A DNA stretch of 64,000 nucleotides from an uncultured Actinomycetes bacterium. Its GTDB lineage: Bacteria; Actinomycetota; Thermoleophilia; UBA2241. A program made the position numbers and the translations under genes. Under the pieces are notes generated by a model. It saw nothing but the letters and a program-made list of their open reading frames with translations. It was not told the DNA's origin and did no database searches. Positions 1 through 23,305 of this stretch are shown piece after piece (position 1 is the first letter of the stretch; every line of letters begins with the position of its first letter). The DNA lies in the NCBI GenBank assembly GCA_963767005.1, contig CAVYCN010000012.1, positions 64,001 to 128,000 of the forward strand. Reading direction: 5' to 3'.

Positions 1-2034
1 GACGAGATCGATCAGCTTGATGCCGATGAATGGCAGCACCATGCCGCCAAGACCGTAGATCAGGAGGTTGCGCCGCAGCAGGGCGGTGGCTCCGATCGCC
101 CGGTAGCGCACACCCTTGAGGGCGAGCGGCACGAGCGCCGGGATGATCAGGGCATTGAAGATCACGGCCGAGATGATCGCGCTGCGCGGGTCGCCCAGAT
201 GCATGACGTTGAGGGCGCTGAGGGGGCCGTGCTGGCCGGGGTGCTTCGCGTAGGTGAAGGCGAACATCGCCGGCAGGATGGCGAAGTACTTGGCCACGTC
301 GTTGGCGATCGAGAAGGTGGTGAGCGCGCCTCGCGTGATGAGCAACTGCTTGCCCACCTCCACGATCTCGATGAGTTTCGTGGGGTCGTTGTCGAGGTCG
401 ACCATGTTGCCGGCCTCCTTGGCGGCGCTCGTGCCGGCGTTCATGGCCACGCCCACATCGGCTTGTGCGAGCGCCGGAGCGTCGTTCGTGCCGTCGCCGG
501 TCATCGCCACCATGCGACCCTCGTCCTGCTCCGACCGGATCAGGGCGAGCTTGGTCTCGGGCGTGGCCTCGGCCAGATAGTCGTCGACGCCGGCCTCGTG
601 GGCGATCACCGCGGCGGTCAGATGATGGTCGCCGGTGACCATGACGGTGCGGATGCCCATCTTGCGCAAGTCGTCGAAGCGCTCGCGCATGCCGGTCTTG
701 ACGACGTCCTTCAGATGCACGACCCCCAGTGCCGTCCTGTTTCTGGCGACCACGAGCGGTGTGCCGCCCCGCTCGGCGACACGCTGTACGGCCTCATCGA
801 TCGCGCTGCCTGGGGCCTCGCCGCCGTTCTCGGCGATGAACGCCTTGACGGCATCGGCGGCGCCCTTGCGGATCTTCGTGCCGTTGAAATCGACGCCGCT
901 CATGCGAGTCACGGCGGTGAAGGGCACGAAGCGGGCATCGGTAGCCACCTCGCGTTGCACCTCGTACTGATCGAGTGCGAGGGCGACGATCGAGCGCCCC
1001 TCGGGCGTCTCGTCGGCCAGCGAGGCGAGCTCGGCCGCCTCTGCCAGCTCGCGCGCGTCGACCCCGGGCGCCGGGATGAACTCGGTCGCCTGGCGGTTGC
1101 CCAGGGTGATCGTGCCGGTCTTGTCGAGGAGCAGCACGTCGACGTCGCCCGAGGCCTCGACCGCGCGGCCCGACATGGCGAGCACGTTGCGCTGCACGAG
1201 GCGGTCCATGCCGGCGATGCCGATCGCCGAGAGCAGCGCCCCGATCGTGGTGGGGATGAGCGCAACGAGCAGGGCGATCAGCACGGTCTGCGACACGTTG
1301 GTGTGGGCGTAGAGCGCGTAGGGACGCAGCGTGGCGACCGCCACGAGGAAGGTGATCGTGAGGCCGGCGAGCAGGATGTTCAGGGCGATCTCGTTGGGCG
1401 TCTTGCGCCGCTCGGCACCCTCGACGAGGACGATCATGCGGTCGAGGAACGACTTGCCGGGCTCCTGGGTGACCTCGACCACGAGGCGGTCGGAGAGCAG
1501 CCGCGTGCCGCCGGTGACCGCCGAGCGGTCGCTCCCTGCCTCGCGGATCACGGGCGCGGACTCGCCGGTGATCGCCGACTCGTCTATCGAGCCGACGCCA
1601 TCGACGATCTCGCCGTCGGCCGGCACGAGCTCGCCGGCCACGAGCTCGACCACGTCGCCCTTGGCGAGCTGCGGTGCGGGCACGTCTTCGAGCGCCCCTG
1701 TCGCGGTCCGTCGGTGGGCGACGGTGGTCGTCCGGGTGGCGCGCAGCGCGCTCGCCTGCGCCTTGCCGCGACCCTCGGCGATCGCCTCTGCGAAGTTCGC
1801 GAAGAGCACGGTGAGCCACAACCATACCGAGATGGTGGCGACGAACCAGAGCTGCCCGGTGCGGCCCTGCGCCAGGTCGATGAAGAAGATCCCGCTCGTG
1901 ATCAGGCTGCCGACCTCGACCACGAACATCACCGGGTTGCGCACCTGGTGGCGCGGGTCGAGCTTGGGAAACGAGTCGCGCACGGCCGCCAGGACGAGCT
2001 GTCGCGAGAAGATGCTGGAACGGCGCGCTGCCAT
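1..2034 (-). CDS. kdpB: K+-transporting P-type ATPase subunit B (3' end runs off window)
   Basis: Read manually: [43 protein letters not shown]...; DKTGTIT phosphorylation motif (~1105-1122) and [14 protein letters not shown]; ATG overlaps the kdpC stop (TGATG). Confidence 0.96.
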
Positions 2035-2621
2035 CAGTTGCCTCCGATCCGGTCGAGCGCGAGGTTGAGCGTCAGGACGTTGACGCCCGGCTCGCCGAAC
2101 AGGCCGAGACTGCGCCCGGTCGTGTTCTGCTTGATGAGCCGCTCGACTGTGGCGAGCGGCAGGTGACGCACCGCGGCGACGCGGTGCGCCTGGAGTCGCG
2201 CGTAGGCCGGCGAGATGTCGGGGTCGATGCCGGAGCCGGACGTGGTCACGGCGTCGACCGGGATGTCGCCGATGGTGAGGCCGGGGTCGTAGGGCCGCTC
2301 GAGCACGAGCACGGCCTGCGCCTGCTTGCGAACCGCCTGCGCCAGCGCCGGATTGGTCGGCCCGAGATTGGCGAACGTCGTGCCAGCAGCATCGTAGGCG
2401 GGCGTCGTGCCCGAGGGCCGCTCGTGGAAGTAGCGCGGTGCGGTGAAGCTCTGCGCGGCGAGCGCCGAGCCGACGACCACGCCATTGCGGTAGAGCAGGC
2501 TGCCCGCAGCCTTGGCCGGGAAAGCCAGCGAGGCGAAGCCGGTCATGAGCGCGGGGTAGGCGAGGCCGAAGACCGCGGTGATCACGACGATGCCGATGAG
2601 TGAACGAATGAGCGTACGCAT
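2034..2621 (-). CDS. kdpC: K+-transporting ATPase subunit C
   Basis: N-terminal [37 protein letters not shown]; lies between kdpA and kdpB. Confidence 0.96.
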
Positions 2622-2622
2622 G

Positions 2623-4311
2623 TCAGTGAACCAGGGATTCGACGATGGGCCCGAGGCTGAGCGCGGGCAGGATCATGAGGCCGGCGGTGAGCGCGACCAC
2701 GCCGACGAGCAGCACGGCGAAGGTCGGCCCGTCGGTGCGGAAGGTGCCGGCGGACACAGGCGCGACCTTCTTACGCGCGAGCGAGCCCGCGAGCGCGAGG
2801 CCGGCCAGCATCGGCACGAAACGACCAAGGTACATGGCCACCGTGCCGAACGATTCCGAGAACGTGGTGGCACCATAGCCGGCGAAGGCGCTGCCGTTGT
2901 TGTTGGCCTGCGACGTGTAGGCGTAGAGCGTCTCGGTGAAGCCGTGCGCTCCAAGGTTGAAGACCGAGGCGAGGCCGGCCGGCGCGGCGATCGCGACGGC
3001 GGTCATGACGAGCACCATGGTGGGCACGAAGAGCGCGCCGAGCGCGGCGAACTTGACCTCGCGGGCCTCGATCTTCTTGCCGAGCCACTCCGGCGTACGA
3101 CCCACCATGAGCCCGGCGACGAAGACGGCGATCAGGATGTAGAAGAACATACCGATCAGGCCGGTGCCGACGCCGCCAAAGATCACCTCGCCGACGAACA
3201 GATTGACGAGGGGCACGGCCCCGCCGGCCGCCGTCTGGGCGTCGAAGCCGCCGTTGACCGAGCCGTTCGAGGCGTCGCTCGTGGCGACCGTCCAGGTGGT
3301 GGTGCCCGCGATGCCGAAGCGGACCTCCTTGTCGGCCATGTTGCCGCCGCTCTGGCCACCGGACGCCACGAGATTCACGCCGGAGTCGCGCAGCACCGGC
3401 GAGGCGTGCTGCTCGGCGGCGAGGTTCACGCCGATGCCTATCACGAACATGGCACTCATCGCCGCGAACACCATCCAGGCGTGGCGGCGCGCCTTGACCA
3501 TGCGGCCGAACATGAAGACCTGGGCGACCGGGATCAACAGGATGGCGATCATCTCGACGAAGTTCGAGAGGCCGGTCGGGTTCTCGAACGGCACCGCCGA
3601 GTTCGAGTTGTAGAAGCCGCCGCCGTTGGTGCCGAGCTGTTTGATTGCGATCTGCGAGGCGACGGGGCCGCGGGCGATCGCCTGATGGGCCCCTTGCAGA
3701 GTGGTCGCCGTGGCGTGGCCGGCGAGCGTCTGCGGCACGCCTTGCGACACGAGAACGACCGCGACGACGACCGACAGCGGCAGGAGGACATAGACGAGCG
3801 ACCGGTAGAGGTCGCGCCAGAAGTTGCCGAGCCTGCTGCCCGAGCGCAGCGCGAGGCCGCGCACGACGGCGGCCAGGACGGCCATGCCGACCGCCGCCGA
3901 GACGAAGTTCTGTACGGCGAGGCCGGCCATCTGGCTCAGGTACGACATCGTCGCCTCGCCGGCGTAGAACTGCCAGTTCGTGTTGGTAATGAAGCTGGCG
4001 GCGGTGTTGAGGGAGAGCGGCGACGGGACGGCCTTCATGTGGTCGGGGTTGACCGGCAGGTGACCCTGCAGCCGCAGGATCGCGTAGAGCACGGCCGAGA
4101 AGGCGACGCTGAACACCAGGACGGTCACGGCATAGCGCTTCCAGCTCTGGTCGTCGCCGCTGCCCCGGCCGAGCAGCCGGAAGAAGCCGCGCTCGACGAC
4201 GTCGTCGCGCCTGCGCGAGTAGACCCAGGCCATGTATCGCCCCAGCGGGTAGGCGAGAGCGATCAGCACCGCCGCGTAGAGCACGATCTGGCCGATGCCT
4301 TCGGCGGTCAT
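2623..4311 (-). CDS. kdpA: K+-transporting ATPase subunit A
   Basis: TNTNWQ, LGTNGGGF, SNGS and NNNGSAFAG filter motifs; start moved to MTAEGIGQ (ATG overlapping the kdpF stop). Confidence 0.96.
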   Translation of the reverse strand: MTAEGIGQIVLYAAVLIALAYPLGRYMAWVYSRRRDDVVERGFFRLLGRGSGDDQSWKRYAVTVLVFSVAFSAVLYAILRLQGHLPVNPDHMKAVPSPLSLNTAASFITNTNWQFYAGEATMSYLSQMAGLAVQNFVSAAVGMAVLAAVVRGLALRSGSRLGNFWRDLYRSLVYVLLPLSVVVAVVLVSQGVPQTLAGHATATTLQGAHQAIARGPVASQIAIKQLGTNGGGFYNSNSAVPFENPTGLSNFVEMIAILLIPVAQVFMFGRMVKARRHAWMVFAAMSAMFVIGIGVNLAAEQHASPVLRDSGVNLVASGGQSGGNMADKEVRFGIAGTTTWTVATSDASNGSVNGGFDAQTAAGGAVPLVNLFVGEVIFGGVGTGLIGMFFYILIAVFVAGLMVGRTPEWLGKKIEAREVKFAALGALFVPTMVLVMTAVAIAAPAGLASVFNLGAHGFTETLYAYTSQANNNGSAFAGYGATTFSESFGTVAMYLGRFVPMLAGLALAGSLARKKVAPVSAGTFRTDGPTFAVLLVGVVALTAGLMILPALSLGPIVESLVH

Positions 4312-4400
4312 CAGAGCCGCTCCCCACGAAAGAGGGCGAAGACGAGGTAGGCGGCCAGCGCGGCCGAAACCGCGAGGCCGAAGATATCTGCGGGCGCCAT
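4311..4400 (-). CDS. kdpF: KdpF peptide (29 aa, MAPADIFGLAVSAALAAYLVFALFRGERL)
   Basis: YLxxALxRxERx C-terminal KdpF signature; TGATG coupling to kdpA. Confidence 0.9.
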   Translation of the reverse strand: MAPADIFGLAVSAALAAYLVFALFRGERL

Positions 4401-4483
4401 CACACACGCTCCAGGACGTAGAGGATCAGGGCGAGAAACGCAAAGCAGGCGAGCACGATGGCGATCGCCGCGATGTCGAACAT
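4400..4483 (-). CDS. 27-aa hydrophobic peptide upstream of kdpF (MFDIAAIAIVLACFAFLALILYVLERV)
   Basis: GGAGGG RBS, single TM segment, stop overlaps the kdpF ATG (TGATG). Confidence 0.75.
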   Translation of the reverse strand: MFDIAAIAIVLACFAFLALILYVLERV

Positions 4484-4818
4484 GGTCGTCCCTCCGGTCT
4501 CACCAAGCAGGTGGCGTCGGGAGCGCGGCGGAGCAGCCGCGCTCCCGGCCTGTCGGCCGCCGGACGCGACGAGTGGCTCCGGGAAGGCTCACCGCGCGCG
4601 ACGGGTACGATCGCGGGAGGCCGCGCTCACCGATGAGGAGCGCCGGCACCGCGGCGAGGAAGCGGGCTGCGGGCCGGATGCGACATCTGCCGACCGGCCT
4701 CGCACGAGACCTCTCATGCTGGCACCTCCACCGCCGAGGAGCCGCAGCGCCCCTGTCGGGGCGACCGGCGAGCGTCCGTCCGGCGACGAAGACTTCTGGA
4801 TTCGTGTTCCCCGGCACT

Positions 4819-4868
4819 CGTAACGAGTTCGTGAAGGAGGGCCGCCGTGCCGTAAAAGTGTCGTGAAC
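4819..4868 (-). promoter_or_regulatory. Putative KdpE-type (OmpR-family) tandem-repeat binding site of the kdp promoter
   Basis: gTTCACG-N4-tTTTACG-N14-cTTCACG-N4-cGTTACG upstream of the kdp operon; near copy at 21289-21337. Confidence 0.65.
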
Positions 4869-4958
4869 GGCGGGCGGGCCGCGATGGGAGGGCGCCGGCT
4901 GCGGCGAGAGGCGGGGCGGCGGACGGCGCGGCGAAGCGGAGCCGGCCGGATGGGGCTC

Positions 4959-6536
4959 CTAGGACTCGCTGCGCGGAGCGGTCTCGGCGGCCTCGTCGGG
5001 CAGGCCGATCACGAAGCGGGCGCCATGCGGCACGACGTCCTCGACGTGGATGCCGCCGCCGTGGGCGCGCACGATCTCGCGGGTGATCGCCAGGCCGAGA
5101 CCCGTGCCAGAGCGCACCTTCATGCCGGTCCTGCCGCCGCGGTAGAACTTCTCGAACACGGCCTCGTGCTCGTCGGCGGCTATGCCGGGGCCCTCGTCTT
5201 CGACCCAGAGCCGCACGCCGCGGCCGGCGGCCTCGGCGCCGACGCGCAGGAGGCCGTTGCCGGCGTACAGCATGGCGTTCTCGAGCAGGTTCTGAAACAC
5301 CCGCACGAACTGTTCAAAGTCGACGCGCAGCGGTGGGAAGTCGTCGGGCACGGCGACGATCACCCGGTCCCGCTCATGGACCGGCAGGGCGGCGAGGCCG
5401 GCGGCGAGGATATCGGAGATTTCGTAGAGCTCGAGGTGCGGCTCCCAGGCGCGCGCCTCGAGACGCGAGAGATCGAGCAGCGCCGTGATGCTGTTGTTGA
5501 GACGGGCCACGTCGGAGACGATGGCGCGCAGCTCGTCGCGCACGCTCCGCTCGTTCCAGGGCACGTCGCCTTCGAGCAGGTTGCTGACCGTCGCCGTGAG
5601 GGCGGCGAGCGGCGTCTTCAGCTCGTGTGACACCGATGAGAGCAGGCTCGACTTGAGGCGATCGGCCTCGCGCAGCGCCTCGGCCGCCGTCGCCACCGTC
5701 TGCAGGCGCTGGCGCTCGAGGAAGGTCGCGATCAGGTTGGCGAGCGCGGCGAGCAGGCGGCCGTCGGCGTCATCGTAGGGTCGGCCGTTCCGCCGGCCGG
5801 CGACGCTCAGGACCCCGACGACTCCGAGCGCGCCGCGCAGGGGAAGAAAGATCCCGCCGCTGCCCTCGGGCACCTTGAAGCCCTCGACCGGCGGCCCGGC
5901 GCCGGCGGTCTCGGCGAGCGTCTGTCGCGGCAGGCCGACCGGCTCGCCGTGCATGTACACCCAGTGCGCCACCCTCGTCGCTCCGCTGTCGGGCTCGTCC
6001 GACGCCGGCGTCACGCAGAACCTGGTGAGCTCGTCGTCGCTGCCGACGAAGAGCGTCGCCGACGCGGCGCCGAGCAGCGTCACTATCTCGCCGAGGATCG
6101 TCTCGGCCATCTCGCCCGTCGAAGCCTGTGAGACAAGACCCGCGGAGAGCCGGTTGAGCGCGGCCGTCTCGTGCTCGCGAGCCAGGGCGCGCGCCTCGCG
6201 GTCTCTCATGCGTCCGGTCTGCACGCCCATGACGACGCCCACCGCCAGGAAGGCAACGAGGGACAGCCAGTCCTTGGGGTCCTGGACCGTGAGCGTGTGG
6301 TACGGCGGCAGGAAGAAGAAGTCCCAGGCGAAGAAGCCCAGCACGGCGGCCAGCACGGCGGGTCCGGCGCCGCTCGCCCCCGCGACGAGCACGACGATGA
6401 GCAGGTAGAGCAGCGCCCACTGCCCCTTGGCGAAGGTGTCGCGGCCCGGCAGGAACAGGGCAGTCGACAGCCCGATCGCCAGGAGGGCGAGCCAGTAGCC
6501 GTGGGCGGCGAGTGTCGTGAGCGTGCGTCGCAGCAT
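4959..6536 (-). CDS. kdpD: KdpD-like sensor histidine kinase lacking the N-terminal KdpD/Usp domains
   Basis: 4 TM (DFFFLPPYHTLTV), GAF, SVSHELKTPL H-box, GTGLGLAI G-box. Confidence 0.88.
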   Translation of the reverse strand: MLRRTLTTLAAHGYWLALLAIGLSTALFLPGRDTFAKGQWALLYLLIVVLVAGASGAGPAVLAAVLGFFAWDFFFLPPYHTLTVQDPKDWLSLVAFLAVGVVMGVQTGRMRDREARALAREHETAALNRLSAGLVSQASTGEMAETILGEIVTLLGAASATLFVGSDDELTRFCVTPASDEPDSGATRVAHWVYMHGEPVGLPRQTLAETAGAGPPVEGFKVPEGSGGIFLPLRGALGVVGVLSVAGRRNGRPYDDADGRLLAALANLIATFLERQRLQTVATAAEALREADRLKSSLLSSVSHELKTPLAALTATVSNLLEGDVPWNERSVRDELRAIVSDVARLNNSITALLDLSRLEARAWEPHLELYEISDILAAGLAALPVHERDRVIVAVPDDFPPLRVDFEQFVRVFQNLLENAMLYAGNGLLRVGAEAAGRGVRLWVEDEGPGIAADEHEAVFEKFYRGGRTGMKVRSGTGLGLAITREIVRAHGGGIHVEDVVPHGARFVIGLPDEAAETAPRSES

Positions 6537-14541: not shown

Positions 14542-15402
14542 TCAGGGACGGCCGTGCGGCCGGGAACGGGAGTGTGAGGAGCGCGTCGACCGGTCGCCGT
14601 CGCCAGCGGCGGCGACCGGCGTCACGCTCCAGTCGCGCAGGTCGCTGCCGCGGAACACGTGGCGCGCGGTCTGGCCGGAGATCGAGAAGACGACCTCTTC
14701 GGCCGGGTAGACCTGCTCGAAGCAGTCGAACGGGCGGGCGTGCTTGTCGAAGCTGACGCCGCGCAGCCGCACCACCTGGTCGCCGCGGGCGAGCTCGAGC
14801 AGACGGCGCTCGGCCGCGCTCGGCGTGACGACCTCGAGGAACTGCTCCTCGTAGTCGTCGTCGAGCCCGTAGCGCCGGGCGAGCAGGCGGTAGAGCGAGT
14901 CGGCGATCTCGGCGCTGCGTCCGTCGAGGCCGGGCGCCAGGACGACCGGGATCACGGCGCGCTCGGCGATCATCGGGCGACCGTCGACGACCCGCAGACG
15001 GCGTACCGTCCACACGTGGTCGTCGGCGCCGAGCTGCAGGGCGTGCGCGAGGGCGGGCGACGGTGCGCACCGTTCGATGCCCAGGATCCTGGTCGTGAGC
15101 TCGTGCGCGCCGTGCTCCTCGGCGAGCGTGCCCAGCAGGCCGCCGGCACGACCCGGCTCGCTCACCAGGCGGGGTCGGGCGACGAACGTGCCGAGCCCCT
15201 GGTGGCTGCGCACCTTGCCCTCGTGCTCGAGCTCGGCGAGGGCGCGGCGCACCGTGATCAGGCTCACGCCGGCCATCGCCGCGAGCTCGCCGCGGCTCGG
15301 CAGCAGATCGCCGGGGCCGAGCCGTTGCTCGGCGATCAGGCCCTCGACCATGGCCATGACGTCGCGGTACCGCAGTCGTTTGGCATCGGGTGTCTCGGCC
15401 AC
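14542..15402 (-). CDS. GntR/HutC-family regulator with UTRA domain
   Basis: LPSRGELAAMAGVSLITVRRAL...QGLGTFV; GGGAGG RBS before GTG at 15402. Confidence 0.9.
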   Translation of the reverse strand: MAETPDAKRLRYRDVMAMVEGLIAEQRLGPGDLLPSRGELAAMAGVSLITVRRALAELEHEGKVRSHQGLGTFVARPRLVSEPGRAGGLLGTLAEEHGAHELTTRILGIERCAPSPALAHALQLGADDHVWTVRRLRVVDGRPMIAERAVIPVVLAPGLDGRSAEIADSLYRLLARRYGLDDDYEEQFLEVVTPSAAERRLLELARGDQVVRLRGVSFDKHARPFDCFEQVYPAEEVVFSISGQTARHVFRGSDLRDWSVTPVAAAGDGDRSTRSSHSRSRPHGRP

Positions 15403-20061: not shown

Positions 20062-21147
20062 CTACAGGGTCCTCGTGACCTTGTGCAGCCCGCGCGGCCT
20101 GTCGGGGTCGTAGCCGCGCGCCTCGGCCAGACGCGCGGCCAGCAGCTGACCCGGCACGATCGCGGCAAGCGGCGACAGCGGCTCCGGAGGCGTCTGCGGC
20201 AGGTGCAGGCAGCGCCTTCTGGCGCTCTCGCCCTTGGCGCGCTCGCTCACGGCGCGCTCGTTTGCCGCTGCGCCCGCCGCACCGTGTGCGCCCTCGACGA
20301 CGACGATCTCCGCGCCGCGCTGCAGCAGGTCGCCCTCGAGGCGGTGCATGGCCGGGAGCGCCCGACCGGGGAGCGAGAACAGCAGGGCCGGATAGCCCGG
20401 CTCGACCATCGCGATGGGGCCGTGCATGAGATCGGCCGCCGAGTAGGGCATGGCCGCGATGTACGAGGTCTCCTTGAGCTTGAGCGCGGTCTCGAGCGCC
20501 GTCGCGAAGTTGTAGCCGCGCGCGGCGACCAGCAGTCGCTCGCTGAAACGCAGCCATTGCGCGATCTCGCCGATCGCGGCGTCGAGCGACAGCGCGGCCC
20601 GCATCGCGGCGGGCACCGCGTCGCGCAGCGCGGCGAGCAGCGCCGCGTCGTCGCACCACGTCGCCCAGAACAGGGCGAGCGCCGCGAGCTGGCTCGTGTA
20701 GGTCTTGGTCGCGGCCACGGCGCGCTCGCGTCCGGCGCGGGTCGGCAGCACGGCGTGGGCGTGCCGCGCGAGCAGGCTGTCGTCGTCGTTGGTGATGGCC
20801 ACCGTGAAGGCGCCCGCGACGCGCGCGTGCGCGACGTACTCGGCGACGTCGGGCGTCTCGCCGCTCTGGCTGATGCCGACGACGAGGCACTCGCGCAGAT
20901 CAGCGGGCCTGTCGTACACGGTGGCCGAGCTCGGGACCGCGAGGCCGGCGGGCACGCCGGCGTGGATCGTCGCCAGGTACTTGCCGTACACGGCCGCGTT
21001 GTCGCTCGTGCCGCGGGCCGCGTAGAGCACGAAGCGGGCGCCGGCGGCGCGCGCGCCGGCGACGGCCGCGCGATAGGGAGCGAGGTCGGCCGCGAGGCGA
21101 GCGACGATGTCGGGCTGCTCGAAGATCTCGTCGCGCATCAAGCTCAC
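20062..21147 (-). CDS. Two-SIS-domain sugar-phosphate deaminase/isomerase (GlmS C-terminal-like)
   Basis: RGTSDNA, ISQSGETPD, AVAATKTY, ALKLKE, HGP, PRGLHKVT. Confidence 0.9.
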   Translation of the reverse strand: MSLMRDEIFEQPDIVARLAADLAPYRAAVAGARAAGARFVLYAARGTSDNAAVYGKYLATIHAGVPAGLAVPSSATVYDRPADLRECLVVGISQSGETPDVAEYVAHARVAGAFTVAITNDDDSLLARHAHAVLPTRAGRERAVAATKTYTSQLAALALFWATWCDDAALLAALRDAVPAAMRAALSLDAAIGEIAQWLRFSERLLVAARGYNFATALETALKLKETSYIAAMPYSAADLMHGPIAMVEPGYPALLFSLPGRALPAMHRLEGDLLQRGAEIVVVEGAHGAAGAAANERAVSERAKGESARRRCLHLPQTPPEPLSPLAAIVPGQLLAARLAEARGYDPDRPRGLHKVTRTL

Positions 21148-21206
21148 GGCTCTCTCGTCTCCTGTCTCGCCCGCCGTGGCCGGCGGCATCGCGCCCGACC
21201 AGCCTA

Positions 21207-21221
21207 GTATACCGATTATAC
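21207..21221. promoter_or_regulatory. Putative GntR operator copy 3 (AGTATA-CCGAT-TATACT)
   Basis: Perfect 6-bp inverted repeat upstream of the SIS gene. Confidence 0.65.
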
Positions 21222-21288
21222 TGACCTTTCGCGCTGCGCGGCGCTTTCACTCGTGATCGTCCGCGCGGTCGACTTCCGGCCGGCTCGC

Positions 21289-21337
21289 CTTTATAGGGTC
21301 TTGACGGCGACGGCGCCCCCGTTCACGGGTCCTTACG
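21289..21337 (+). promoter_or_regulatory. Orphan copy of the kdp-promoter tandem-repeat motif
   Basis: cTTTATA-N4-cTTGACG-N14-gTTCACG-N3-cCTTACG, then CATCAT as -10 candidate (21349-21354). Confidence 0.6.
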
Positions 21338-21360
21338 CCCGGCGCTGCCATCATCGCAAC

Positions 21361-21515
21361 GACGCCCCGCCGTCTCTCTGTCCCCGGCGGGGCGCCGGCT
21401 CGCAAGGGCACGGGCGACCCGCTCGCCGGCGCCGTCGCGACGCTCGGACTTCGGCCCTCCCCCGTGGGGCCGGACAACAAGGCCGCCGGGCCGCAAGGCC
21501 CGGCGGCCTTGTTTT
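21361..21515 (+). ncRNA. Candidate small RNA (~155 nt)
   Basis: Promoter motif upstream; hairpins with CU-rich loops; GCAA tetraloops; 17-bp-stem terminator with T-run. Confidence 0.5.
21476..21515 (+). terminator. Intrinsic terminator
   Basis: AACAAGGCCGCCGGGCC-GCAA-GGCCCGGCGGCCTTGTT-TT. Confidence 0.8.
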
Positions 21516-21539
21516 GCGTGAGGTCGACGGAGACGACGC

Positions 21540-21583
21540 GACGGGCCCGGCGGGGCGGCTTTGGCCGCCCCGCCGGGCCCGTC
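21540..21583 (-). terminator. 20-bp-stem hairpin downstream of SBP copy 2
   Basis: GACGGGCCCGGCGGGGCGGC-TTTG-GCCGCCCCGCCGGGCCCGTC. Confidence 0.6.
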
Positions 21584-21607: not shown

Positions 21608-23305
21608 CTACTTGGTGATCCAGTAATGCTCGAAGTCGAAGATCCACACCGGGTGCAGGTAGACGCCGCCGGTGCGCCTGGAGTGCAGTGTGGTCACGGT
21701 CTCCTGGTACAGGGGCACGCCCGGCATCTGCTGCATGATGTAGGACTGGATGTCCTGGAACTTCGCCAGGCGCGCCGCCGGGTCGGTCATGACCTGAGCG
21801 CTGGTCATGTCGGTCTCGACCTTCGGATCCCACCAGAAGCTGGGGTTCGTGCCCTCGTCGATCGCCGAGCTCCTGCTGAACAGGCTGACGATGTAGTCGA
21901 ACGGATCGGGGTAGTCCATCCACCAGTCGTTCAGGCCGAGACCGACTGCGCCCTTCTTGCCGATCAGTGTCCAGTACGCCGGCTCGTCGAGCAGCTTGAT
22001 GTTCGCCTTGATGCCCACCTGGGCGAGGTCGTACTGGATGGACTGGATCACGGTGGGCCACGGCGCGACGTTGTGCGAGTACAGGGTCGTGCTGAAGCCG
22101 TTGGGGAAGCCGGCCTGACTCAGGAGCTGCTTGGCCTTGGCCGGGTCGTAGCCGTAAAAGTTGCCGGCGGCGCCGTCGACGTGGCCGGGCAGACCGGCGG
22201 GGTAGATCTGGTTGAGCGGCAGGGCCGTGCCCGAAAGCAGCTTGACGATCTTGGCGCGATCGATGGTCCAGGCGATCGCCTGACGCACCAGCAGGTTATC
22301 GAACGGCTTGACCGTCATGTTGAAGAACAGGTAGTCGAGCGCGATCGCCGGCTCCTGGACCACCTGGCTCTTCCACTGCGGGCTCGCGACCAGGCCCGGG
22401 TACTTCGACGGCGGGATATAGTTGCCGAGCAGGTCGGCGTCGCCGTCCTGCACCTTGAGCACGGCCGTGTCCGGCGTGATCGAGAAGTCGAACTGGATCT
22501 TGTCGACGTACCCCGCGGTGCCCGTGTAGTTCGTATTGCGCACAAGCAGCAGGTCCTGGCTCGCGGTCCAGTGGTCGCACACGTAGGGGCCCGTGCCGAG
22601 GGGGTGCCGGCCGACCTGCTTGCCCCACTTGGCGACCCACTCCCTGGCCACGGGCGCGCTGAAGGGCATCTCCATGATGTTGAGGAACGTGGCGATCGGC
22701 TTCTCGAGGTCGACCTCGAGGGTGTACGTGCCGGTCGCCTTGTAGCCGGTGATCGTCTTGGCCTTGCCGTCGAGGAACGCCTGCAGGCCGACGATGCCGG
22801 TGTAGTAGCCCTTCGCCGGGGCGGTCGGCAGGCTCATCATGCGCTGGAAGCTGTAGACGAAGTCGGCCGCCGTGACCTCGCGGTTCACCGGCGGGGCGAA
22901 CTTGATGCCCGGCCTGATGTGGAAGATGTAGGTCTTGCCGCCGTTTGTGATGCCGCCGTTGGCCACGGTCGGGACCTCCGTCGCCATGTCGGCGATGACC
23001 TTCGTGCCGGCGGCGCCTGGGCCGCTCGTGTAGTTCAGCAGGTTGCCGAAGATGGCGTGCTCGATGGCCCAGCCGTTGCCCTCGAAATCGATCGCCGGAT
23101 CGAGCGTCTGTGGCTCGTTCTGGAACGCGACGACGAGCGTGCCGCCGCGCTGCGGCGTGGTCGCCGACGTCGCGCTCGCGCCGCCGCCGCCGCCCGACGA
23201 GCTGCCGCAGGCGACCAGTCCGAGAGCACACACGACCAGCACGACGAGCAGGCCACCGACGACGCCGGCGGCAGGCCGGCGCGCGTCCCTGAGGAAGGCA
23301 GTCAT
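21608..23305 (-). CDS. ABC transporter family-5 substrate-binding lipoprotein, copy 2
   Basis: Close paralogue of 18255..19988; lipobox LVAC. Confidence 0.92.
   Translation of the reverse strand: MTAFLRDARRPAAGVVGGLLVVLVVCALGLVACGSSSGGGGGASATSATTPQRGGTLVVAFQNEPQTLDPAIDFEGNGWAIEHAIFGNLLNYTSGPGAAGTKVIADMATEVPTVANGGITNGGKTYIFHIRPGIKFAPPVNREVTAADFVYSFQRMMSLPTAPAKGYYTGIVGLQAFLDGKAKTITGYKATGTYTLEVDLEKPIATFLNIMEMPFSAPVAREWVAKWGKQVGRHPLGTGPYVCDHWTASQDLLLVRNTNYTGTAGYVDKIQFDFSITPDTAVLKVQDGDADLLGNYIPPSKYPGLVASPQWKSQVVQEPAIALDYLFFNMTVKPFDNLLVRQAIAWTIDRAKIVKLLSGTALPLNQIYPAGLPGHVDGAAGNFYGYDPAKAKQLLSQAGFPNGFSTTLYSHNVAPWPTVIQSIQYDLAQVGIKANIKLLDEPAYWTLIGKKGAVGLGLNDWWMDYPDPFDYIVSLFSRSSAIDEGTNPSFWWDPKVETDMTSAQVMTDPAARLAKFQDIQSYIMQQMPGVPLYQETVTTLHSRRTGGVYLHPVWIFDFEHYWITK

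Follow-up and report, generated by a model that had tools for sequence, protein, structure and literature searches.

A four-half-site KdpE-type promoter on the plus strand of the DNA analyzed here—a 64,000-nucleotide stretch, the window, which is G000:C12:64001–128000 of the 3.44-Mb, ~71% GC genome G000—probably drives a short, likely non-coding transcript. We assign a probability of roughly 0.45 to the fuller reading that this transcript is a KdpE-activated, lineage-specific small RNA (sRNA) repressing translation through C/U-rich loops that pair with purine-rich ribosome-binding sites (RBSs). The element is flanked by a SIS-domain sugar-phosphate gene (20062–21138, minus strand) and a family-5 solute-binding protein (SBP) gene (21608–23305, minus strand), and it has homologues in two other genomes of the genus, G011 and G009. 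The features to which the argument refers are as follows.

21290–21306, plus strand: upstream KdpE-type half-site pair TTTATA-N5-TTGACG (half-sites TTTATA at 21290–21295 and TTGACG at 21301–21306), 11-nt period, kept in G011 and G009
21322–21337, plus strand: downstream half-site pair TTCACG-N4-CTTACG (half-sites TTCACG at 21322–21327 and CTTACG at 21332–21337), 10-nt period, overlapping the −35 position
21349–21354, plus strand: predicted −10 hexamer CATCAT at the distance from half-site 1 seen in other boxes, 59 nt
21361–21516, plus strand: candidate non-coding RNA of ~155 nt, its start placed from the −10 and its end from the terminator
21363–21394, plus strand: P1 hairpin with a 12-nt loop, UCUCUCUGUCCC, at 21373–21384
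21395–21447, plus strand: P2, an irregular middle hairpin containing a stretch nearly identical in G011, its fold varying between homologues
21450–21474, plus strand: P3 hairpin with a C5 run, loop CCCCCGU at 21459–21465, kept in three genomes
21476–21516, plus strand: P4 terminator hairpin of 17 bp with a GCAA loop and a U tail, probably bidirectional
21540–21583, minus strand: separate 20-bp hairpin, the likely terminator of the convergent SBP gene
4819–4868, minus strand: reference four-half-site box with a non-consensus −10, upstream of the in-window kdpF/A/C/B cluster

The box at 21290–21337 is well supported as a KdpE-type sequence feature: Its layout, its rarity in the genome, its co-occurrence with KdpE orthologues, and an E. 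coli-type first half-site all point to a KdpE-type promoter. The four half-sites lie where a preliminary description of this DNA had placed them, and the matching motif at 4819–4868 on the minus strand is likewise present. The likeness drawn between the two arrangements holds for the four half-sites but not for the last spacing, which is 10 nt here and 11 nt in the reference; the 10-nt spacing also occurs in other promoters of the K+ island described below. The promoter chosen as reference is itself atypical, with AACACG at the −10 position instead of the consensus TAGCCT. Family loci share one fixed layout, with half-sites at offsets 0, 11, 32, and 42–43 and the −10, usually TAGCCT, at +59; 8–9 promoters in G000 use it. 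All three homologues (3/3) have the −10 hexamer at +59, reading CATCAT in G000, CATGAT in G011, and CACCAT in G009, and from CATCAT at 21349 we infer a transcription start near 21361.

Genome-wide motif scans placed the box far above chance. With a matrix built from the two kdp promoters alone, it scored 31.6 and ranked fourth in the genome, the best site on any other contig scoring 19.5; with a matrix trained on five other promoters, it scored 33.3 and was the best non-training site, and all nine sites in the genome scoring >17 lay on C12, the contig of the K+ island. Compared with KdpE-type repeats—TT-initial 6-bp direct repeats with an 11-nt period upstream of a −10—the first pair has a period of 11 and the second a period of 10. 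The E. coli KdpE site upstream of kdpFABC, given in passages of PMC3264566 as TTTATA-N5-TTTACA, has an identical first half-site, the same 5-nt spacer, and TT-initial 6-bp direct repeats; the element differs from it in having two tandem pairs (offsets 0/11/32/42–43), a fixed −10 at +59, and no downstream ORF.

The same box lies upstream of kdp genes and co-occurs with kdpE across the family. A degenerate pattern recovered 60 boxes in 39 of 89 family genomes (reversed control, 0). All 39 belong to the 58 genomes that encode a KdpE orthologue, and the 31 genomes lacking one yielded 0; the comparison uses a pattern built from the same sites, related genomes are not independent samples, and many of the assemblies are incomplete. 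An orthologue was a best match at least 64% identical; the 31 genomes comprise 24 with no match and 7 with only ~50% paralogues. Family-wide, boxes precede kdpF/A, a P-type ATPase-trkA-trkA operon, and genes beside kdpE. Assigned by script or by eye, the 32 distinct boxes in the 30 loci returned stand before kdpF/A leaders, the P-type ATPase, or small proteins, the downstream assignment of one (L251) being uncertain. No hairpin-terminator unit was found at the seven other family boxes inspected by eye.

Several KdpE boxes drive unannotated small single-pass membrane proteins that are conserved across the family; a loose script assigned 62 of 90 distinct boxes to this kind. The one box-driven small membrane protein tested belonged to no Pfam or NCBIfam family and had only sub-0.9 atlas matches. 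Examples with KdpE boxes, which have orthologues in L097–L124 and L241–L278, are the following.

L056 14762–15001, minus strand: small membrane-protein gene
L056 16756–17070, plus strand: small membrane-protein gene

An isolated KdpE box lies on the plus strand at C12 11483 (L057 7584–8145), ~40 kb from the island; it drives two small hypothetical genes and is also found in G011.

The K+ island starts ~15 kb from the element and extends beyond the window start. Within it are two kdp clusters, a split KdpD, a KdpE-like regulator encoded at C12 61815–62556 on the minus strand, and a P-type ATPase gene accompanied by two trkA genes; the best model for the regulator is KdpE at 231 bits, under the curated cut-off of 325. 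Gene order is F-A-C-B in one cluster (window 1–4403) and F-A-B-C in the other (L056 10376–14428), and two tandem hydrophobic ORFs of ~27–30 aa lie upstream of each. KdpD is in two pieces, a sensor part and a kinase part. On the minus strand at L056 4178–8479, a type-II-like P-type ATPase gene and then two trkA genes lie under a KdpE-box promoter; TrkH was not found in G000, and the operon is possibly an unconventional K+ or Na+ pump module. Of 21 intergenic regions compared with G011, the 555 nt ahead of the in-window kdp cluster (4403–4959) show the highest identity, 95%, which might reflect a long structured leader or a recent exchange; the box in this region has the −10 AACACG (AACACC in G009). 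A GntR/UTRA regulator gene lies elsewhere in the window, at 14542–15402.

Downstream of the box, predictions from the sequence describe an independent unit with a promoter, a terminator, and no ORF. The stretch 21361–21515 folds with z = −6.4 on the plus strand and −5.3 on the reverse strand, and the three homologues folded separately span z = −4.7 to −7.8. The impression that no credible gene lies downstream was borne out: No ORF with a Shine–Dalgarno (SD) sequence is common to the three homologues, and the RNA unit contains no hydrophobic frame. Small-ORF and pseudogene readings were rejected: The three homologues do not have any SD-preceded start codon in common, and the small membrane proteins of the regulon leave no detectable remnant (best HMM E = 0.022, below inclusion). 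The P1 stem-loop with UCUCUCUGUCCC was recovered at 21363–21394, and the plus-strand terminator is indeed separate from the SBP hairpin (21476–21516 vs. 21540–21583). Two details of the hairpins in the preliminary description needed correction. The second stem does carry a C run, but its predicted loop is CCCCCGU rather than CUCCCCC, the preceding C and U being stem-paired; and of the GCAA tetraloops, the terminator's forms in the minimum-free-energy (MFE) fold, whereas the other is unformed and has no conserved counterpart in G011. The genome gave 261 C5-hairpin matches, and P3 with a long hairpin after it was found at 2 places among them.

Conservation in two relatives with compensatory changes supports the prediction of a structured non-coding RNA. 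In G011 the element is syntenic with that of G000; it retains the box, the −10, and an identical P1 loop (12/12), while the P1 stem carries two two-sided changes and one one-sided change with pairing kept, P4 carries three two-sided changes, and the G–U pairs of P1 and P3 are compatible with the plus strand only. In G009 the element was found by promoter scan, with the box, the −10, P3 with its C-run, and P4 in a 143-nt four-hairpin fold (z = −7.8); its 5′ half is unrelated in sequence and lacks the P1 loop. The MFE loop of P3 is CCCC only in both relatives. On the covariation that had been suggested as a check, a structure-conservation test limited to three sequences counted 2 two-sided pairs in P1 (2 genomes), 5 in P4 (3 genomes; 97.8% of cells paired), and 0 in P3. 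Also in favor of the RNA, P4 is retained beside the separate SBP hairpin although G000 and G011 have no plus-strand gene ahead of it.

Fourfold-site identity between G000 and G009 is 0.62–0.66, near-saturated and close to the value for other genera. In a tree of three genes from 17 genomes, with all rows kept and four g10 genomes as outgroup, G009 and the G000+G011 pair form the two deepest genus branches, in an order that is weakly supported (74, 56). Box register, −10, and P3 are kept at this near-saturated divergence, so these features were apparently retained for long, which argues for selection. Counted against the main reading are the narrow distribution (3 of 12 genomes in the genus and 3 of 89 in the family), the identity of 0.77 between G000 and G011 over the RNA, which is ordinary beside 0.41–0.95 in other intergenic regions, the likeness by eye of P4 to the SIS terminator of relatives, and the fact that perfect palindromes can covary without selection at the RNA level. 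Among 321 other genomes of the class no copy was found; the one pattern match was a different, sigma-70-type C-rich element.

The locus might instead be a vestige, a KdpE promoter whose small-protein gene decayed before an inherited terminator and whose transcript is functionless. Most other boxes do drive small membrane proteins, the element is missing at the SBP end in the 8 other genus members examined, overall identity is ordinary, and the 5′ half in G009 is of unrelated sequence. We nevertheless consider this unlikely: Box register, −10, and P3 survive near-saturated neutral divergence, a compensated P1 stem bears an invariant loop, no ORF remnant reaches HMM inclusion, and three separate folds are all unusually stable at the z-scores given above. 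A cis-acting role upstream of the SIS operon, as a leader or riboswitch, was rejected, since the SIS gene has the opposite orientation to the element in G009; the SIS gene's own TATAAT (21216–21221, minus strand) and the lack of an Rfam riboswitch also speak against it. The element tracks the SBP 3′ end, not the SIS 5′ end, and in G009 a small membrane-protein gene lies between the SIS gene and the box. Most relatives carry the SIS gene and an aminotransferase gene in divergent orientation, and the SIS gene has a conserved operator-like sequence; in the window an operator-like sequence, TAGTATAC...TATACT at 21203–21222, overlaps the TATAAT of the SIS gene, and related motifs precede SIS genes family-wide.

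In other bacteria, it is established that low K+ acts through KdpD to generate KdpE~P. The favored reading of a KdpE-activated sRNA would place the same cascade here, with the kdpD-like and kdpE-like genes of the K+ island as its components. KdpE~P would bind the two half-site pairs, at ~−71 to −24, and activate the CATCAT promoter, as layout and co-occurrence suggest; a transcript would extend from ~21361 to the P4 terminator; and the 12-nt P1 loop, the P3 C-run, or both would pair with G/A-rich leaders. This last step is drawn by analogy to 6C RNA, which passages of PMC6486639 describe as pairing with G-rich RBSs via C-rich loops. Anti-SD action of the C/U-rich loops is plausible on that analogy, within the limits set by the missing CU loop in G009 and a C-run loop of 4 nt in two of the three folds, a tight length for a pairing seed.

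The 6C sRNA, or B11, of Actinomycetota (RF01066) resembles the element in that, in the portions of the literature consulted, its C-rich hairpin loops are proposed to pair with G-rich RBSs independently of a chaperone. The element nonetheless had no RF01066 match at any threshold tried, including among the 24 matches to E = 10. Where 6C has two conserved C-rich loops, the element has one C5 loop and a CU loop; it lacks two loops with at least six C, its P1 loop having three C in a row and being absent in G009, and it further differs in its narrow range and KdpE-type promoter. Two-component-controlled trans-acting sRNAs, which passages of PMC9262595 describe in mixed TCS/sRNA circuits, share with it a direct-repeat response-regulator box, a short ORF-free transcript, and an intrinsic terminator, with KdpE as the proposed regulator here. 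Cuckoo RNAs and S. aureus RNAIII also present pyrimidine-rich loops (CU- or C-rich anti-SD) on stable stems, but the element matches no Rfam family, lacks repeated identical loop modules, and belongs to a different phylum. In its proposed mode of action, the element is like a two-component-controlled, 6C-style sRNA outside the 6C family.

Searches of the open-licence PMC and bioRxiv literature found no KdpE-activated sRNA, and no relevant small-RNA paper was found for the presumed class. In passages of the Caulobacter study bioRxiv 10.1101/2023.07.05.547876, KdpE ChIP-seq yields a different motif, and one sRNA is down-regulated at low K+, its status as a KdpE target being unstated in those passages; the supplementary peak tables of that ChIP-seq could contain sRNA promoters. 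An Rfam search, another of the checks that had been proposed, assigned the RNA unit to no known family, 6C included: In the window nothing reached the gathering score, the 24 weak hairpin-type matches to E = 10 all falling well short of their own cut-offs, and the two homologue loci gave no match to E = 0.05. Pattern scans returned 1 match in metagenomes, inside a coding gene; G011 plus 3 copies of that coding match in GTDB; and 6 matches in viruses, all unstructured. Exact patterns of this kind miss diverged copies, and those based on P1 are unable to find G009. Two covariance models run on the 89 family genomes recovered only training sequences and terminator-only matches, with 3 of 7 non-self loci inspected for the first model and 3 of 3 for the second.

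Two further candidate sRNAs came to light. On the plus strand at G000:C7 ~104440–104650 (L202 ~1140–1350), a sigma-70-like TTTACA...TAATAT promoter precedes a hairpin with a C7 loop and a tandem pair of identical hairpins whose loops contain C6, a separate unit that looks 6C-like and has no Rfam match. In G151, from another family of the class, L195 ~1590–1760 carries a TTGACA-N17-TATATT promoter and several C-rich-loop hairpins and is unannotated.

Candidate targets were sought among 3042 predicted start regions in G000, from gene calls made for the analysis. The APC permease named in the preliminary description did not hold up: The 7-nt match exists, but its heptamer occurs in 46 of the 3042 start regions and the gene ranks 88th; moreover, G011 has a G in place of the U that lengthens the pairing, with no change in its APC SD. 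The top P3 partner in G000 is dnaB, its family confirmed (rank 1 of 3042, 14 contiguous pairs, −37.3 kcal/mol); the pairing is not significant, its energy being reached by 3 of 25 shuffled leader sets and its helix length by 6 of 25. The gene is attractive as a target because 6C RNA represses dnaB in mycobacteria, where it is a validated target according to passages of PMC6486639. The pairing in G011 has two mismatches and no compensation, and in G009 the start of dnaB falls outside the contig. In both RNA-bearing genomes with data, which are sister taxa, the dnaB RBS contains a G5 run that is absent in the 8 others.

Elsewhere the target search was less specific. Pairing of P3 with the kdp leader falls in the top 2% of leaders, with no compensation in G011 and with similar G-runs also in genomes that lack the RNA; the starts of the K+ channel, trkA, and cation/H+ antiporter genes gave nothing specific, ranking 317 or worse. 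The P1 loop is complementary to many RBSs, and two hypothetical genes keep 10–12-nt matches in G000 and G011. The RBS of a TetR gene, matching the P1 loop over 11 nt, was dropped, having no counterpart among 20 G011 sites, and a compensation screen in G011 found none among the 30 of 128 sites it covered. No tested gene was both significant and compensated. We put forward, tentatively, that this would be the first sRNA under direct KdpDE control, an RNA branch of a multi-promoter KdpE regulon whose C/U loops would stop translation of mRNAs with G-rich RBSs, possibly including dnaB, and link K+ starvation to growth control in an uncultured actinobacterial lineage.

The lack of any significant or compensated predicted target also suits a KdpE-driven structured RNA acting through a protein, such as a binder of C-rich loops, rather than by mRNA pairing. 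Within the RNA body, all three homologues share just one feature, a stable hairpin capped by a small CCCC(C) loop, and the P3 loop has four C in the G011 and G009 folds against the 12-nt loop with seven C that the consulted passages give for 6C. A 12-nt unpaired pyrimidine loop that is invariant between G000 and G011 and complementary to many RBSs is, however, a typical pairing seed, and the analyses point to no partner protein; we judge this alternative improbable. A promoter for convergent or antisense transcription that damps the SBP gene at low K+, with incidental hairpins, would account for all three copies facing the 3′ end of the same SBP gene and for the weak plus-strand U tail of P4 in G011 and G009. 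It is very unlikely, as one or two strong hairpins stand between the promoter and the SBP gene, the overlap would reach the SBP 3′ end only, and P1 loop conservation is left unexplained. Least probable is a genuine regulatory RNA under another OmpR-family regulator or a signal other than K+: The genome has many related regulators (38 first-look candidates), the island regulator scores under the KdpE cut-off, and KdpE motifs vary among bacteria in passages of PMC5401905 and bioRxiv 2023.07.05.547876, but throughout the family the box precedes kdpF/A, the P-type ATPase-trkA-trkA operon, and genes next to kdpE, and it was found in none of the 31 genomes without a KdpE orthologue.

KdpDE has been described as controlling transcription of a K+ pump and, in certain pathogens, of virulence genes. 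The reach of the finding is limited, as the proposed regulator-RNA link is confined to three MAGs of one genus. The analysis also defines a sharp four-half-site KdpE box for an entire uncultured family and reveals a regulon rich in unannotated small membrane proteins. If the candidate RNA is expressed, K+ sensing in these organisms would gain a post-transcriptional arm, as other two-component systems have.
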